64,000 nucleotides of DNA from an uncultured Candidatus Saccharibacteria bacterium. Lineage in GTDB: Bacteria > Patescibacteriota > Minisyncoccia > Portnoybacterales > UBA2143. Shown here one piece after another: positions 14,798-61,665 of the stretch (positions are counted from its first letter, which is position 1; every line of letters starts with the position of its first letter). The notes beneath the pieces were generated by a model that was not told where the DNA came from, made no database searches, and saw only the letters and a program-made list of their open reading frames with translations. The stretch covers positions 74,415-138,414 of the forward strand of contig CAYPQZ010000006.1 in assembly GCA_964413015.1 (NCBI GenBank), given 5' to 3'. The position numbers and the translations under genes are program-made.

Positions 14798-15739
14798 ATG
14801 GAAAAGAACCAAAAACCACTTCCTCAGCATTTAACTGATTTTCTGGACTGGTTGGACATTGAAAAAGGTTTATCTAATAAATCCCAGGAAAACTATTCCC
14901 GCTTCCTTAAGAAATTCATTGACTGGTTGGCAAAAAATAATCTAAGCGATTTAAAGCCTCACGAACTCTCCCCTGCCCATATTTGGGAATACCGAGTGTA
15001 TCTATCACGGCATTCCGAAAAACCTTTGAAAAAGACAACCCAGAACTATTACTTGATTGCTTTGAGGTCTTTTTTGAATTATTTTGCCAATCGAGATATA
15101 ATTTCCTTGCCTTCGGAGAAAGTCAAACTGGCCAAAAGCAAAGATGAGAAAAAGGTTCATTTCTTAAACCTAGAGCAAATAGAAAAACTTTTAGCGGCGC
15201 CGGATGTAAAGAGAATAAATGGATTAAGGGATCGGGTTATTCTAGAAGTTTTGTTTTCAACCGGATTGAGAATTGCCGAACTGGTTTCCCTTAACCGGGA
15301 CCAAATCAGGATTACTCCTTTGACCAAAGATTTAGAAATTGGTATTATCGGCAAAGGCAATCATAACCGAACAGTCTATTTCTCCGAAAGGACAGTTTAT
15401 TGGTTGAAAAAATATCTTGACCAAAGGGAAGACAAGGATAAAGCTCTGTTCGTTAATTATCAGGGCAGGAAAAACGCTACTCGGCGGCTGACTGACCGTT
15501 CCATTGAAAGGAATATAAAAAAATATTCTTTGCTAGCCGGGTTATCAGGCAACACCACCCCGCATACTCTTAGACATTCTTTTGCCACCGATTTGCTTTC
15601 TCAAGGTGTTGACTTGCGTTTAATTCAGGAATTCTTAGGACATCGGAATATTGCCACTACTCAGATTTACACCCACGTGACTAACAAACGTTTGAAGGAT
15701 ATCCATCGTAAATTTCACGGAGGTAAGAAATTAGAATAA
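14798..15739 (+). CDS. xerC: Tyrosine recombinase XerC/XerD family
   Basis: C-terminal catalytic motif HTLRHSFATDLLSQGVDLRLIQEFLGHRNIATTQIYTHV and an N-terminal core-binding domain. About 310 aa. Confidence 0.8.
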   Translation: MEKNQKPLPQHLTDFLDWLDIEKGLSNKSQENYSRFLKKFIDWLAKNNLSDLKPHELSPAHIWEYRVYLSRHSEKPLKKTTQNYYLIALRSFLNYFANRDIISLPSEKVKLAKSKDEKKVHFLNLEQIEKLLAAPDVKRINGLRDRVILEVLFSTGLRIAELVSLNRDQIRITPLTKDLEIGIIGKGNHNRTVYFSERTVYWLKKYLDQREDKDKALFVNYQGRKNATRRLTDRSIERNIKKYSLLAGLSGNTTPHTLRHSFATDLLSQGVDLRLIQEFLGHRNIATTQIYTHVTNKRLKDIHRKFHGGKKLE

Positions 15740-21506: not shown

Positions 21507-21742
21507 TTATTTAAGGATTGTCATTGAGGATTACGTCTCTTCGCCTTTGGCGAAGGGCGTGTCCGCCTGCCCGCCTCTGGAGGGAAAGGACGACTCCTTA
21601 AATTTTGACAAGGATAAACTGATAAGAACAGTCTTTAAAATGACGCCCTTGTGCTCAAGGGACATCATTTTAAGGACTGGCCTTATCATCATCTGTTCTT
21701 ATCGTATGACAATTCTTAAATTTTTAAAAGTCGACTGTTCTT
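21507..21742. repeat. Family-A modular repeat, full-length copy (L-module ... R hairpin)
   Basis: tttaaggattgtcattgaggattacgtc ... ccgcctctggagggaaaggacgactccttaaattttgacaagg ... ataagaacagtctttaaaatgacgcccttgtgctcaagggacatcattttaaggactggcctt. Confidence 0.85.
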
Positions 21743-31698: not shown

Positions 31699-31873
31699 TC
31701 AACCCAGTAGAAGAATTTTGAAACAAATTTTAACAAAGTTAAAATTTAAATTAAAAATATTCAAAATTTCTCTACTGGGTCAACCCAGAAGAAGAATTTT
31801 GAAATAAATTTTAACAAAGTTAAAATTTAAATTAAAAATATTCAAAATTTCTCTACTGGGTCAACCCAGAATC
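31699..31873. repeat. Family-B element, tandem 81-bp direct repeat x2.15 (cccagtag variant); each unit is a ~20-bp inverted-repeat hairpin
   Basis: Units 31699..31779 and 31780..31860 plus a partial third, of the form tcaacccagtagaagaattttgaaa...ttcaaaatttctctactggg. Confidence 0.85.
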
Positions 31874-32803
31874 TTTTTCATGGGCCAATTCATCTAATCC
31901 TAACATCTCCATCTTCTGATTATATCTTTCTAAAGTTTCTTTTTCCGGCGAATCTGGATGGAACTCCAATTGCTGGTCATTAAAAATTACCCGTCCGCCA
32001 GCCCGATAAGTCAGCGGATCTTTCCTTATCCGTTGTGCCTGAAACTTCCTTAAAAGAAATTCTACTCCATCTCCTATTTTATTGTCAAGTATAAACTCTC
32101 TGGATTTTCTAAAAAAGGAAAAAAGAAAATGACTTTTGATTGTTTTTAAAAATCCTTTTTGGCCAATTGGATAAAAAGCCAAATAATCTTTAATCCATTG
32201 ATTAGCCCGTTGAAATTTTTTATCTAAATCTGGCTCGGCCTGCCAAACCGGAATTAAATGAGCATAAGTTTGAGCATTATACAGGCTGAAAAGAGGAATC
32301 CCTAAGGATTGGGTGGTGATATAGTGATTTAGGCAGAATCGATTTTCGGTCAGTTGGCCGTGCCTCCGCCGGCCGAGCAAATGGATAAACAAAGTTGTCA
32401 AAGCCCGGCAGGTCCAAATGCGACCGGCGCGGGTAACGATTAACAAATCTATGTCCGATTCTTTCCTTGGATTATTCATAGCCAAAGAGCCGCTTAACAT
32501 GACCAAACGGATAAAAGGAATATTTTGAATCAGCTTTATTGTCCAGCGCGCTTTTTTCCAGCGCTGGTCAGCCAGTTTCTGTCTTTCAATTCTTTGATCA
32601 GCTAAGCGGCTCTGGCCTTTTAAAAAATAGAAGCCGTTTTTTTGCTCTATTCCAGGATGATTTTCTAAAGCATCCAAGATTCTCTTTAATTTTATCGGCT
32701 GACATCTGGTTAGATATCTAAAAACCTCCCAGCCAGTCAAAGGCCGTTCCAAAACATCATAATAAGCCAAAGTAGCTAAAATTGATTTTTCCAAGTCAGC
32801 CAT
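31853..32803 (-). CDS. Nucleotidyltransferase-fold protein, hypothetical
   Basis: GS-x10-DIDLLIV is a minimal nucleotidyltransferase motif. The last 6 codons and the stop are supplied by the tandem repeat. Confidence 0.45.
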   Translation of the reverse strand: MADLEKSILATLAYYDVLERPLTGWEVFRYLTRCQPIKLKRILDALENHPGIEQKNGFYFLKGQSRLADQRIERQKLADQRWKKARWTIKLIQNIPFIRLVMLSGSLAMNNPRKESDIDLLIVTRAGRIWTCRALTTLFIHLLGRRRHGQLTENRFCLNHYITTQSLGIPLFSLYNAQTYAHLIPVWQAEPDLDKKFQRANQWIKDYLAFYPIGQKGFLKTIKSHFLFSFFRKSREFILDNKIGDGVEFLLRKFQAQRIRKDPLTYRAGGRVIFNDQQLEFHPDSPEKETLERYNQKMEMLGLDELAHEKDSGLTQ

Positions 32804-32839
32804 ATTATAAAAATTTAAGAATTGTTATTAAAGCCATTA

Positions 32840-32900
32840 AAGGACAGTCCTTAAAATGATGTTCCTTAAGCACAAAGACGTCATTTTAAAGACTGTTCTT
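32840..32900. repeat. Family-A hairpin repeat
   Basis: aaaggacagtccttaaaatgatgttccttaagcacaaagacgtcattttaaagactgttctt. Confidence 0.8.
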
Positions 32901-33504: not shown

Positions 33505-33605
33505 AATACGGTTCTTAAATTTTGATAAGGATAAGCAGATAAGGACAGTCTTTAAAATGATATCCCTTGAGCACAAGGGCGTCATTTTAAAGACTGTCCT
33601 TTAAC
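33505..33605. repeat. Family-A repeat (R-hairpin with partial spacer)
   Basis: cttaaattttgataagg...ataaggacagtctttaaaatgatatcccttgagcacaagggcgtcattttaaagactgtcctt. Confidence 0.85.
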
Positions 33606-42402: not shown

Positions 42403-42651
42403 TTATTCTTTAGCATCGCCGCCTATATTTATAGGCTCATAGGCGACTATTTTATATGCTCCTTTATCCTTGTCGGTAACTGCAAATATCTTTGGTATTG
42501 TTTTTCGGTTGGCTCCCTTAATATTATACAACCTTATTTCTGCAGTCGGGCTATCTTTGCGAAGAAGCATAAAAGAAGAATCAAGCTCTTCAATTTCTCC
42601 TTCCTGGAAATAAATATTATTGATCTTAAGTTCAGTAATTGGATTTTTCAT
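42403..42651 (-). CDS. Hypothetical small protein
   Basis: 82-aa ORF with no recognisable motif. Confidence 0.3.
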   Translation of the reverse strand: MKNPITELKINNIYFQEGEIEELDSSFMLLRKDSPTAEIRLYNIKGANRKTIPKIFAVTDKDKGAYKIVAYEPINIGGDAKE

Positions 42652-42728
42652 TTTTCTTCTCCTCTAAGATTTAAATTTAAAGAACTAAATATAATCTACT
42701 CTATAATTTTTAATTAATCAAGGGCGAG

Positions 42729-42856
42729 CCCCGTAGAGAAATTTTGAAACATTCGCCTAGGCGAATAATAAACGGGGTAAAAAATAAGTACACGAATAAA
42801 AAGAGTTCCGAATAATTAAAAATTAGTGAATTTAAATTCAAAATTCTTCTACGGGG
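42729..42856. repeat. Family-B element (TIR ccccgtagagaaattttgaa ... ttcaaaattcttctacgggg)
   Basis: About 128 bp. The right TIR overlaps the first 3 nt of tRNA-Leu. gggcgag is found on both flanks. Confidence 0.8.
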
Positions 42857-42936
42857 CGAGTGGTGAAATGGCAAACACGCTAGCTTCAGGAGCTAGTGGA
42901 GGCAACTCCTTGCGGGTTCAAATCCCGCCTCGCCCA
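42854..42936 (+). tRNA. tRNA-Leu (anticodon CAG), long variable arm
   Basis: Acceptor GGGCGAG/CTCGCCC, anticodon arm CTAGC-TTCAGGA-GCTAG, variable arm TGGAGGCAACTCCTT, T-arm GCGGG-TTCAAAT-CCCGC. Confidence 0.85.
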
Positions 42937-45387: not shown

Positions 45388-45462
45388 AATCTCAGTTCTT
45401 TATTTTAATTAATCTAAAAATCATAAAAGTCCCGGACGAACGGGGCTTTTATGATTAAAAAA

Positions 45463-45580
45463 AAGACAGTCCTTAAAATGATGTCCCTTGAGCACAAAGG
45501 CGTCATTTTAAAGACTGTCCTTATCAGTTTCCCCTTGTCAAAATTTAAATCCTTAAATTTTTAAACTGTCCTTTAACTAA
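45463..45580. repeat. Family-A repeat (R-hairpin plus spacer and short end module)
   Basis: gacagtccttaaaatgatgtcccttgagcacaaaggcgtcattttaaagactgtcctt...ccccttgtcaaaatttaaatccttaaatttttaaactgtccttt. Confidence 0.85.
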
Positions 45581-47608: not shown

Positions 47609-47659
47609 ATTGACTATTCTAACTAAAAAACCACCTCGGGTCAAGGATTCAGCATAATT

Positions 47660-47826
47660 AAAGGACAGTCCTTAAAATGATGTCCCTTGAGCACAAGGGC
47701 GTCATTTTAAAGACTGTCCTTATCTGCTCCCCTTTGTCAAAATTTAAGGAGTCGTCCTTTCAAACACGCCCTTCGCAATTCTGCAAAGGGACGTGACTCT
47801 CAATGACAATCCTTAAATTTTTTAAT
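47660..47826. repeat. Family-A modular repeat, full copy in inverted orientation (R hairpin ... L-module)
   Basis: aaggacagtccttaaaatgatgtcccttgagcacaagggcgtcattttaaagactgtcctt...tcaaaatttaaggagtcgtcctttc...gacgtgactctcaatgacaatccttaaatttt. Confidence 0.85.
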
Positions 47827-48020: not shown

Positions 48021-48022
48021 AC

Positions 48023-48158
48023 ACCGTAGAAGAATTTTGAATTTTAATCAATAACATTGATTAATAATCTAAGATTCTTCCTTATTTAATTATTCCTATA
48101 TACCCCGTTTTATTAAATTAAATATTTAATTTAATTATTTCAAAATTTCTCTACGGGG
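48023..48158. repeat. Family-B element (TIR caccgtagaagaattttgaa ... ttcaaaatttctctacgggg) with TCATA direct repeats on both flanks
   Basis: It fills the entire fdx-fba intergenic region. The left TCATA (48017..48021) carries the fdx start codon and the right TCATA (48159..48163) carries the fba stop codon. Confidence 0.85.
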
Positions 48159-51342: not shown

Positions 51343-52311
51343 TCATTTCCTCTTGATGACTTTTAGAACTGCTTCTTTAATATCTTTTGCCACTAAACCG
51401 AATTCTTTCATTAGCTCATCCGGCTCGCCGGATTCGCCAAAGCGGTTCTGAATGCCAATCATTTCAATAGGCACCGGTTCATTTTTAGCTAAAACTTCCG
51501 CTACTGCGCTGCCTAAGCCACCCATTACCTGATGGTCTTCGCCAGTGACAATTGCTCCGGTCTGTTCAGCCGCTTTAATAATTTCCTCTTCGTCAATCGG
51601 CTTAATCGTATGATTGTTAATCACCCGCACATCAATTCCTTGTTTAGACAAACTCTCAGCGGCTAACAAAGCTTCATAGACAATCGGTCCACAGGCAATT
51701 ATGCTGACATCTCGCCCTTTTCGTAAAACTTCTGCCTGCCCGATTTTAAAAGGTGTCTTAGAAGTAGTAAAAATAGGCGTGGCTTCCCTAGCAAATCTTA
51801 AATAAACCGGTCCCTCTATTTTGCCTGCGGCCACAGTTGCTTTCTGCGTTTCAACAGCATCACAGGGAGCCAATACAGTCATATTCGGCAAACAGCGAGT
51901 AATCGCTATATCCTCTAATCCCTGATGAGTGGCTCCATCTGCGCCAACTGAAACCCCGGCATGGGCGCCGGTCATTTTCACATTGACGTTGTTATAGGCA
52001 ACAGATATTCTGATTTGGTCCCAGTTGCGTCCGGGGCAAAAAACGGAATAAGTTGAAACAAAAGGAATTTTGCCGGTGAGCGCTAATCCGGCCGCTACGC
52101 CAATCATATTTTGCTCGGCAATCCCACATTGAACAAATCTTTCCGGGAATTCATCACGGAACCAGTTACAGCGGGTTGAACCAGTTAAATCAGCTCCTAA
52201 AACAATTATGTTTTTATTCTCTTTAGCCAGTTCAACCAACCCTAAACCATAGCCGTCACGAGTCGGCTTTTTTTCTAACTTGCTTTTATTGTATAAATTT
52301 TTTGCTAGCAT
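51343..52311 (-). CDS. tktB: Transketolase, C-terminal subunit (pyrimidine-binding plus C-terminal domains)
   Basis: Pyrimidine-binding and C-terminal domain patterns. Split-gene arrangement. Confidence 0.85.
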   Translation of the reverse strand: MLAKNLYNKSKLEKKPTRDGYGLGLVELAKENKNIIVLGADLTGSTRCNWFRDEFPERFVQCGIAEQNMIGVAAGLALTGKIPFVSTYSVFCPGRNWDQIRISVAYNNVNVKMTGAHAGVSVGADGATHQGLEDIAITRCLPNMTVLAPCDAVETQKATVAAGKIEGPVYLRFAREATPIFTTSKTPFKIGQAEVLRKGRDVSIIACGPIVYEALLAAESLSKQGIDVRVINNHTIKPIDEEEIIKAAEQTGAIVTGEDHQVMGGLGSAVAEVLAKNEPVPIEMIGIQNRFGESGEPDELMKEFGLVAKDIKEAVLKVIKRK

Positions 52312-52335
52312 GTTTTAAAATGATATCTTTTAACG

Positions 52336-52505
52336 ATAAGGACATTCCTTAAAATGATGTCCCTTGAGCACAAGGGCGTCATTTTAAAGACTGTTCTTAT
52401 CAGTTTGTCTTATCTGTTTCCCCTTGTCAAAATTTAAGGAGTCGTCCTTTCCCTCCGGAGGCAGACATATGACAATCCTTAAATTTTTCAAAACTGTCCT
52501 TTAAC
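52336..52505. repeat. Family-A modular repeat, full copy (inverted orientation) between the two tkt halves
   Basis: aaggacattccttaaaatgatgtcccttgagcacaagggcgtcattttaaagactgttctt...ccccttgtcaaaatttaaggagtcgtcctttccctccggagg...atgacaatccttaaatttttcaaaactgtccttt. Confidence 0.85.
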
Positions 52506-54485: not shown

Positions 54486-54621
54486 CCCCGTAGAAGAATT
54501 TTGAATTCTAATCAATTTTATCGATTAGCAATCTAAAAAATTTTCACTTAATTATTTATAGAACGCCCCGTTTTATTAAATTAAATCAAAGATTTAATTG
54601 TTTCAAAATTTCTCTACGGGG
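54486..54621. repeat. Family-B element (TIR ccccgtagaagaattttgaa ... ttcaaaatttctctacgggg) with TCATA direct repeats on both flanks
   Basis: It fills the rpiB-gap intergenic region. The left TCATA (54481..54485) contains the rpiB start and the right TCATA (54622..54626) contains the gap stop. Confidence 0.85.
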
Positions 54622-59343: not shown

Positions 59344-59478
59344 GCCCCGTAGAAGAACTTTGACATTCACCTTAAATATCAAAATCTTAATTAATGTTTT
59401 TAATTTATTCTGTGTTTATACACCCCGTATGTCTATTTATTCGCCTTGGGCGAATGAGTCAAAGTTTCTCTACGGGGC
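59344..59478. repeat. Family-B element (TIR gccccgtagaagaactttga ... tcaaagtttctctacggggc)
   Basis: Lies between the dsbA-like start and the mtaD-like stop. The internal palindrome ttcgccttgggcgaa is shared with the 42729 copy. Confidence 0.8.
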
Positions 59479-61409: not shown

Positions 61410-61439
61410 AAAATTAAGATGATTAAAGGATAGCCAATT

Positions 61440-61665
61440 AAAGGACAGTCCTTAAAATGATGTCCCTTGGGATAAGGACTATGATAAGGACAGTCCTTAA
61501 AATGATGTCCCTTGAGCACAAGGGCGTCATTTTAAAGACTGTTCTTATCAGTTTCCCTTTATCAAAATTTAAGGAGTCGTCCTTTCCCTCCAGAGACGGG
61601 CAGGCGGACACGCCCTTTGCCTTCTGTAAAGGGCGTGATCCTCAATGACAATCCTTAAATTTTTC
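61440..61665. repeat. Family-A modular repeat, full copy with duplicated half-hairpin (inverted orientation)
   Basis: aaggacagtccttaaaatgatgtcccttgg... then a full hairpin, then ...tcaaaatttaaggagtcgtcctttccctccagagacggg...gggcgtgatcctcaatgacaatccttaaattttt. Confidence 0.85.

Follow-up and report, generated by a model that had tools for sequence, protein, structure and literature searches.

A hairpin-forming miniature element probably inserted inside a tRNA-Leu(CAG) gene of an uncultured Patescibacteria-type genome, with its own terminus appearing to supply the start of the tRNA

The nearest analogues, in function and shape, of the element described here are the Correia elements of Neisseria (CREE/NEMIS) and the Rickettsia palindromic elements (RPEs). 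Correia elements are co-transcribed, their stems are RNase III substrates and their ends can create promoters (PMC2649163). RPEs occur in structured RNA genes, those for tmRNA and RNase P RNA (PMC2229807), and as in-frame insertions in protein genes (PMC10969869). A 2024 review of prokaryotic miniature transposable elements with inverted repeats (MITEs) mentions neither tRNA genes nor start codons (PMC10969869), and in the literature on MITEs in the candidate phyla radiation (CPR) and Parcubacteria, or on MITE insertions in tRNA genes, we found nothing relevant. We have analysed a 64-kb stretch (38.7% G+C; hereafter, the window) of contig CAYPQZ010000006.1, assembly GCA_964413015.1, in which a 128-bp non-coding element of a repeat family termed Family B overlaps the 5′ end of a tRNA-Leu(CAG) gene. 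It is best read as a MITE insertion of a known kind in an unusual variant, i.e., placed inside a tRNA gene and rescued by the element's own terminus.

The heptamer GGGCGAG occurs at 42722-42728 (+) and again at 42854-42860 (+), on which direct reading and pattern search were concordant. Across both strands of the window (128 kb scanned) it was found four times in total, the other occurrences being the 3′ acceptor strand of the tRNA itself (42929-42935, -) and an unrelated site at 51711. The tRNA-Leu(CAG) gene (42854-42936, +) is of class II with an intact cloverleaf; it was called by ARAGORN and matched Rfam RF00005 over its full length (61.3 bits, model positions 1-71), with acceptor pairs 7/7 (GGGCGAG/CTCGCCC). 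From the end of the left heptamer into the right one runs the element, a long-class Family B member (42729-42856, -) recovered by the family profile (nhmmer E = 4e-18) and without an Rfam match. Its terminal inverted repeats, 20 nt each and complementary at 18 of 20 positions, are CCCCGTAGAGAAATTTTGAA at the distal end (42729-42748) and TTCAAAATTCTTCTACGGGG at the gene-proximal end (42837-42856); in family orientation, the GTAGAAGAA-type end is the one at 42856, adjoining the tRNA. The inverted-repeat pattern was observed 13 times in the window against 2.1 expected, and at least 13 were reached in none of 100 shuffles. The interior contains a hairpin, ATTCGCC-TA-GGCGAAT (42751-42766), found by comparison of copies and by DNA and RNA fold predictions, in which the stem sequence varies among copies and the hairpin is kept, and, as is usual in the long class, the terminal motif a third time (42772-42777; plus-strand ACGGGG, CCCCGT in family orientation). 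The GGG that closes the element (42854-42856) coincides with, and acts as, tRNA nt 1-3. Flank identity extends exactly 4 nt beyond the complete inverted repeats, giving a left CGAG at 42725-42728 and a right CGAG at 42857-42860, the latter being tRNA nt 4-7 by sequence reading and by the duplication length of the family. Both the flanking heptamer pair and the right repeat ending in the first GGG of the tRNA, remarked upon in a sequence-only reading of the window, were confirmed.

Orthologous loci show the site in its empty state. Via the neighbouring RNase J gene, uncultured genomes of Patescibacteria/Parcubacteria type were identified as the nearest relatives, and in five of their loci devoid of the element the sequence runs uninterrupted as TCAA|GGGCGAGTG. 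We reconstructed the ancestral site by deleting 42729-42860 (the element plus one CGAG) and aligning the remainder to orthologous tRNA-Leu/RNase J loci (L019, L021, L014, L009 and L007); the block TCAAGGGCGAGTG was invariant in all six sequences, and the empty junction reads AATCAAGGGCGAGTGGTGAAATGG. The left GGGCGAG (42722-42728, +), which follows AATCAA, marks the ancestral position of tRNA nt 1-7, now apart from the tRNA body: it occupies the place of the tRNA 5′ end in relatives, with the same spacing to the conserved TCAA, and the ancestral upstream region still precedes it. This AT-rich flank (42677-42721, +) carries TATAAT at 42690-42695 and 42702-42707 and ends in the invariant TCAA (42718-42721), and a TTAAAG block upstream of the tRNA is common to the window and the five orthologous loci. 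The tRNA promoter region had been placed either inside or beyond the element; the second option describes the ancestral upstream region, which stands beyond it, before the left copy. In all, empty orthologous sites are known for three window copies. The GAPDH-rpiB junction without the element reads aaaaaacTATGAtttatttagg, uninterrupted in L006, L019, L012 and L027, and the aldolase-ferredoxin junction reads ...aataaattATGAaaat in L048, L010 and L020, with L014 and others likewise uninterrupted. It follows that these elements arrived by insertion within this lineage.

Besides the tRNA copy, the window has three elements of ~135 bp with these termini, together with two tandem 77-bp relatives, and a family profile search returned these six copies (four long, two short) and no others. 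One long copy (48022-48158, +) lies in the ATGA stop/start overlap between the genes for fructose-bisphosphate aldolase and ferredoxin and another (54486-54621, +) in the ATGA overlap between GAPDH and rpiB (Pfam context), both flanked by TCATA on either side; the last (59345-59477, +) adjoins the ATG of a DsbA-like gene and has an imperfect duplication (CATG/CAGG). The tandem short-class pair (31703-31860, +; copies at 31703 and 31784), with ends CCCAGTAGA..., has TCAA on both sides of each copy, and the tRNA copy has CGAG. Since the flanks differ from copy to copy, the flanking repeat is a duplicated target and not part of the element; with TCATA, TCAA, CATA and others at the remaining copies, the heptamer is not simply the consensus end, a possibility by which the insertion could have been dismissed. 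A small non-coding mobile element that inserted with target duplication, as the sequence-only reading proposed, is supported by both the family and the orthologous comparison.

The family is widespread in Patescibacteria/CPR-type genomes and appears to be undescribed. A pattern scan of public metagenomes matched at least 120 stretches, mostly from groundwater and sediment among the matches listed; from these listed matches and related loci (222 loci, 2.27 Mb in all) 94 unique complete elements were extracted. They fall into four size classes of ~37 nt, 60-85 nt, 115-155 nt and, in a few cases, 285-360 nt. No open reading frame (ORF) was found in the element, and Rfam searches at gathering and E-value thresholds returned only tRNA matches and no family for it (best 18-19 bits, vs gathering scores of 75-141). 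Folded as single strands, they form a terminal stem with internal hairpins, in which pairing is preserved through changes of sequence. For 21 short members, which share a conserved terminal stem of 19 bp, 94% of cells are paired and 74 double-sided changes were counted vs 22 in shuffles, values reached in none of 500 shuffles.

The length of the duplication decides where the tRNA site was cut. A flanking direct repeat of 4 bp is present in 47 of the 94 members and one of 5 bp in nine, where random flank re-pairing gives 9.0 and 0.6, respectively; repeats longer than 5 bp were found in none of the 94. Terminal GGG is present in all full copies, complete ends have the form CCCN...N'GGG, and the fourth terminal base covaries with its partner (C:G 32, G:C 18, T:A 7, A:T 6; n = 91). 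By this rule the true target duplication at the tRNA would be CGAG, tRNA nt 4-7, and the additional GGG identity would stem from the terminal G-run of the element: the GGG before the left CGAG is the original tRNA G1-G3, the GGG before the right CGAG is the element terminus, and the two are identical since both are GGG. The heptamer had been taken as a whole for the duplicated target; its CGAG retains that role and its GGG belongs to the element, the family never showing 6 bp or more. As CGAG spans tRNA nt 4-7, the insertion falls inside the tRNA gene, with a staggered cut across these nucleotides, and not at the 5′ boundary where it had been located.

We consider it probable that a non-autonomous hairpin-forming MITE inserted into the tRNA-Leu(CAG) gene itself, a reading that builds on the observed anatomy, family membership, 4-bp rule, empty orthologous sites and intact tRNA sequence. 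A staggered cut across tRNA nt 4-7 would have duplicated CGAG, the 4 bp usual for the family, and the element end ...CTACGGGG would have put its three G at the place of tRNA G1-G3, regenerating a complete gene (GGG+CGAG...) on the right and stranding the original G1-G7 to the left, immediately after the ancestral upstream region. On the 4-bp reading, the right-hand tRNA gene would be a chimera of the element's GGG and tRNA nt 4-83, its sequence presumably intact only because the G-rich end replaces the three displaced bases. Persistence would most likely reflect survivorship, as the gene would have been inactivated by an insertion elsewhere in the tRNA. The locus represents a natural case in which a transposon enters an essential structured-RNA gene and leaves the mature sequence unchanged, its end mimicking the gene start.

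Several points weigh against insertion as reconstructed. An empty allele from the same species was not found: five of five assemblies carrying the neighbouring 82-aa gene are identical here, and an exact-match metagenome scan for the empty tRNA site gave no match; the insertion at the tRNA is therefore inferred from other species. Identical sequence around the finding (~340 bases compared) is present in GCA_002030005.1 (contig LQBG01000056.1), one JGI metagenome and three Logan assemblies. The window copy at 59345 lacks a perfect duplication. A 4-bp duplication with terminal GGG and one of 7 bp with 3 nt missing from the repeat are inseparable by sequence, so that the choice rests on the family rule. 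No transposase was found in the 64-kb window, and the 222 loci contain no repeat-bounded element of 400-4000 bp with an ORF, so no autonomous partner there. A consensus promoter scan flagged nothing upstream of or inside the tRNA copy and, lastly, the misfold predicted for the precursor argues that tRNA function could be impaired.

That prediction concerns the transcript. The tRNA is most likely transcribed from the ancestral upstream region, whose promoter (two TATAAT hexamers and the TTAAAG block) is putative, with the whole element as a ~140-nt 5′ leader. When the read-through precursor (42715-42936) was folded, the left GGGCGAG was the partner of the tRNA 3′ strand in the structure of minimum free energy (-76.2 kcal/mol), stacked there on the element's whole terminal stem. 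The acceptor stem with the left copy scored -74.8 vs -66.4 kcal/mol with the right copy, canonical tRNA costing 8-10 kcal/mol, and pair probabilities were ~1.0 for the left copy and ~0 for the right. In the precursor, the left GGGCGAG on its full terminal stem is thus predicted to outcompete the right copy for the tRNA 3′ strand; for a transcript starting inside the element, a canonical cloverleaf is predicted. Given the preference for left-copy pairing, the duplication is not innocuous and maturation not trivial. Three outcomes are possible on these models: cleavage of the stem that frees the right part for RNase P, a start within the element, or an impaired gene. The first, a route borrowed from the Correia elements, would have the 20-bp terminal stem cut by RNase III before RNase P acts; RNase III acts on Correia element stems (PMC2649163), and rnc, which encodes this enzyme, is retained in CPR genomes (PMC12641178). 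The second would bypass the left copy through transcription initiated inside the element. Productive maturation would probably require one or the other of these two. A built-in competitor for acceptor-stem pairing raises a testable question on pre-tRNA folding and on RNase P/RNase III processing in Patescibacteria. On the minus strand, the invariant TCAA before the tRNA is the complement of the TTGA in a possible divergent promoter, TTGATT-17-TAGATT (42693-42721), which would serve the 82-aa gene (42403-42651) and lies a few nt beyond the distal end of the element.

The tRNA-Leu copy is the sole one at a tRNA gene among ~100 members in the 222 loci, and tRNA-proximal insertion, invoked in the sequence-only reading as a hallmark of mobile DNA, is inapplicable to this family. 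Its members favour the starts of protein genes. The ends differ by an invariant asymmetry, GTAG-W-AGAA vs GTAG-W-GAAA, which sets family orientation, and in 48 of the 94 members (mostly long class, some short) the GTAG-W-AGAA end is followed within 0-1 nt by the start of an ORF (60 codons or more) that reads away from it, compared with 2/94 at the opposite end. All four long window copies, the tRNA copy included, turn the same GTAGAAGAA-type end to a gene start. About 50 different housekeeping genes are adjoined, e.g., those for L6, S20, S15, UvrB, TrpRS, DnaJ, SecA and LigA. At start-codon sites the duplication is typically CATA, i.e., TATG in gene direction; a Shine-Dalgarno-like core is found upstream in 3 of 31, and a -10-like hexamer stands 5-8 nt before the ATG in about half, as in leaderless genes. 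Two window copies (48022 and 54486) occupy ATGA overlaps within a glycolysis/pentose-phosphate operon; at these sites (48022-48158 and 54486-54621), stop and start codons are now 140 nt apart, at the feet of the element stem.

Promoter hexamers are the other kind of site. Insertions in -35 hexamers belong mostly to the short class, with TTGA or CTTG as duplication. At TTGA-type sites a -10-like hexamer follows at 16-18 nt in 16 of 18 (two with longer elements), vs 11.6% of all TTGA in the same loci (p = 1e-13), a control that includes coding DNA, so that the true enrichment is smaller but still large. The short pair at 31703-31860 sits in the -35 hexamer of a groES promoter-like site, TTGACG-17-TAAGAT. 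Mini elements of 37 nt sit in -10 hexamers, with TATA(A) or TAAGA duplicated, and four have an ATG 6-7 nt after the regenerated hexamer; the TTGAAA/TTGAGA of their repeat is 16-17 nt from the far terminus, and TTGAAA is the same distance from the regenerated TATAAT of the duplicated flank. At every kind of site, tRNA included, the duplication restores on the gene side the signal that had been broken. Two further ideas were examined and abandoned. Hairpin loops were rejected as a general target, the duplication falling in a predicted loop at 4 of 59 empty sites vs 12% of shifted controls. A terminator active in one orientation is unsupported as a cause of the orientation bias, no terminator-like site being present in any window copy on either strand.

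We tentatively put forward, as two halves of a single conjecture, that Family B is a gene-start-seeking mobile hairpin of ultra-compact CPR genomes, which inserts preferentially at promoter landmarks or is retained only there, and that the tRNA precursor, as modelled, folds with the left copy and either matures via stem cleavage or yields a tRNA with a 132-nt extra arm between nt 7 and 8. The landmarks may be the -35 hexamer at its upstream edge, the -10 hexamer, and the first codon or transcription start, and the 4-bp duplication with the G-rich terminus may rebuild TTGA(CA), TATA(AT), (T)ATG, the G+TG start codons of one subfamily and tRNA G1-G3. The pattern may reflect either target choice or survival where intergenic DNA is almost entirely promoter. 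Mechanistic targeting, e.g., by recognition of promoter DNA that RNA polymerase holds open or bends, would be a target-choice mode new for a bacterial transposon. What deserves attention is that the family is placed, exact to the base, at -35 and -10 hexamers and at housekeeping start codons in genomes that have hardly any intergenic DNA to spare: it could reveal how streamlined genomes come to retain mobile DNA, and may help to map promoters and leaderless genes in unculturable organisms.

The same placement at gene starts also fits another explanation, compatible with insertion, which we regard as possible, on the doubtful side: that the element is a co-opted leader or promoter module supplying a transcription start or processing signal to the tRNA and the adjoining protein genes. 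Co-option would explain the fixed orientation toward gene starts (48 of 94, with two in the opposite sense), a rule that all four long window copies obey, as well as the conservation of internal blocks and hairpin structure; the predicted misfold would not arise in a transcript begun within the element, and promoter-like hexamer pairs in gene direction are present inside three window copies. These pairs, however, stay within the level of the AT-rich background (43 found, 29 expected), and the tRNA copy yielded no promoter in the consensus scan. With a spacing of 16-18 nt to the TTGAC of the repeat, a -10 hexamer was counted in 4/44, 5/43, 11/45 and 4/42, vs 9-17% in shuffles, and is not enriched; a complete promoter inside the element, anchored on that TTGAC, was rejected on this count. 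Nor does the gene-proximal end carry a Shine-Dalgarno sequence or a -10 at leaderless distance.

An improbable alternative is a true 7-bp target duplication, by which the element would end at 42853 (42729-42853, its right repeat minus the last three G) and would have landed just 5′ of an untouched tRNA. The two heptamers are indeed identical, and the reconstructed empty site is the same under either model. Such an event would nevertheless demand two exceptions to the family rule at once, namely a duplication length unprecedented in the 94 members (none above 5 bp) and a truncated end in a family whose complete copies all close with CCCN...N'GGG and a covarying fourth base.

Very unlikely, in our estimation, is that the left GGGCGAG is a remnant of an older or tandem tRNA-Leu gene and that the element merely lies between this remnant and the complete tRNA, with no duplication by insertion. 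Precedents are at hand: GGGCGAG-type 5′ remnants precede a complete tRNA-Leu(CAG) in L008, L012, L020, L028 and perhaps L010, and L032 has two tandem tRNA-Leu genes. Those remnants, though, are 18-27 nt long and their complete tRNA is of another sequence type (GCCGNNG), whereas the left piece here is exactly 7 nt and the same as the start of its own tRNA. It stops, moreover, precisely where a known mobile element begins, the overlap coming from the other end of that element, and the element-deleted sequence equals the uninterrupted orthologous sequence. Chance likeness of the two heptamers is negligible as an explanation; apart from the shortness of the motif nothing speaks for it, the probability at one fixed position being 1.3e-5, with four occurrences on both window strands, and the empty orthologous sites speaking against it too.

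The tRNA-Leu(CAG)/RNase J locus is also a rearrangement hotspot among the orthologs L008, L010, L012, L020, L028 and L026. The GGGCGAG-type 5′ remnants there measure 18-27 nt (perhaps 6-8 nt in L010) and lie upstream of complete tRNA-Leu(CAG) genes of GCCGNNG type. In L028 a 3′ remnant is found downstream as well, the complete new tRNA being inside the old one and bounded by CCCCGCGCCAAA...TTTGGTACGGGG, and L026 has a tRNA-like fragment with a 35-nt palindrome (CCCCG...CGGGG ends) in the D-loop.

Compared with MITEs in general, Family B has terminal inverted repeats (20 nt, 18/20 in the tRNA copy) and target-site duplications of fixed length (4 bp in 47/94, 5 bp in 9/94; CGAG in the tRNA copy), and is small (37-360 bp), non-coding, multi-copy (six window copies) and polymorphic between related genomes (three empty sites); a cognate autonomous insertion sequence (IS) was found neither in the window, nor in the 222 loci, nor in viral contigs. 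It resembles Correia elements in being 100-160 bp long and non-coding, with long terminal inverted repeats folding to a long stem, many gene-adjacent copies and, probably, co-transcription with genes. Correia elements, in contrast, have a TA duplication, 26-bp repeats and an IHF site, where Family B has duplications of 4-5 bp, CCCNGTAG... ends and sites in -35/-10 hexamers or at start codons; the TA duplication and 26-bp repeat are absent here (duplications are CATA, TCAA, CTTG, CGAG, etc.) and no sequence relation was seen. With RPEs it shares a palindromic build, mobility and tolerance inside genes. RPEs, however, add a segment to the RNA, whereas here the mature tRNA is left unchanged, the terminus replacing the displaced bases; host clade and sequence differ as well. 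An insertion resembling those of RPEs was observed in L087 (family orientation 1195-1273), where a 79-nt member and its 5-bp duplication add 84 nt, stop-free and in frame, to a DinB-like ORF at a GCGAAGC motif.

REP/REPIN sequences have GTAG at the foot of an imperfect palindrome, with structure conserved and stem sequence variable, and their doublets form long hairpins. The likeness is evident in the Family B ends, CCCN-GTAG followed by a palindrome, and in the mini members, which are single 37-nt hairpins. REPINs, moved by RAYT (Y1 HUH) transposases, nevertheless lack target duplications, whereas most members here have one of 4-5 bp, and REPs are found mostly at gene 3′ ends, as opposed to gene starts. 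No RAYT (Y1_Tnp) gene is among the precomputed Pfam hits for the 64-kb window, and membership in REP/REPIN was rejected on the presence of target duplications. As in phages and islands that integrate at tRNA genes, a complete tRNA is retained and the incoming DNA carries bases identical to the displaced ones; those elements, in contrast, encode an integrase and bring, as a dedicated att site, a 3′ tRNA segment tens of bases long, where this one has three bases, at the 5′ end, and no integrase nearby. A tRNA-targeting integrative element was rejected, the insert being 128 bp and non-coding, with no adjacent integrase and the 5′ side duplicated, and tRNA targeting not being a property of the family. 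The only integrase of the window, at 14798-15739, is ~27 kb from the tRNA-Leu element. Mini members recall IS elements with outward -35 boxes in that their TTGAAA/TTGAGA pairs with a duplicated flanking TATAAT, and the few nested insertions in hairpin apices recall the loop-seeking IS1397/ISKpn1, from which the family differs in that loop targeting is not general and no transposase was found. The ends presumably also resemble those of IS1380/piggyBac-like elements with DDE transposases (CC(C) start, 4-5-bp duplication). For the mover of the family, viral contigs were scanned as well; all 13 matches (13/13) were chance pattern matches without a partner repeat, and no autonomous partner was found among them. 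Eight of the 13 carry sequence that in L144 lies inside the reverse-transcriptase ORF of a diversity-generating retroelement beside phage-like genes. L090, L144, L162, L207-L209, L212 and L216 were likewise rejected as members, being chance pattern matches to conserved sequence (in L144, the reverse-transcriptase ORF).

Nested or hairpin-apex insertions were observed in L094, L183, L102, L168 and L165. For some, the host site is another member's CGCGAAGCG mini-hairpin (duplication CGAAG), and L094 shows triple nesting; for others it is a palindrome centre (CCCG) or the loop of a hairpin resembling a terminator (CTTTG). A composite subfamily consists of a ~140-nt unit followed by TAG and a second short hairpin unit (L086, L128, L129, L141, L142, L147, L151, L153, L158, L164, L178, L184, L185, L201 and others). 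It adjoins GTG start codons in most members checked, with no long ORF at L141 and L178; in L141 at least, the G of GTG is the terminal G of the element, a parallel to GGG supplying the tRNA start.

In the window, a 316-aa ORF (31853-32803, -) ends in ...DSGLTQ*, its last codons and TAG stop being supplied by the second short element's inverted repeat together with its TTGA duplication, and the CCCAGAAT preceding this ORF end (31853-31872) looks like the stub of a third copy. A second and more abundant repeat family, AAGGACAGTCCTTAAAATGA...GTCATTTTAAAGACTGTCCTT, reaches 141 nt and occurs in both orientations, e.g., at 21549-21689, 32836-32900, 33537-33601, 45458-45562, 47657-47761, 52334-52438 and 61437-61621; in L010 a related sequence separates the tRNA remnant from the new tRNA.

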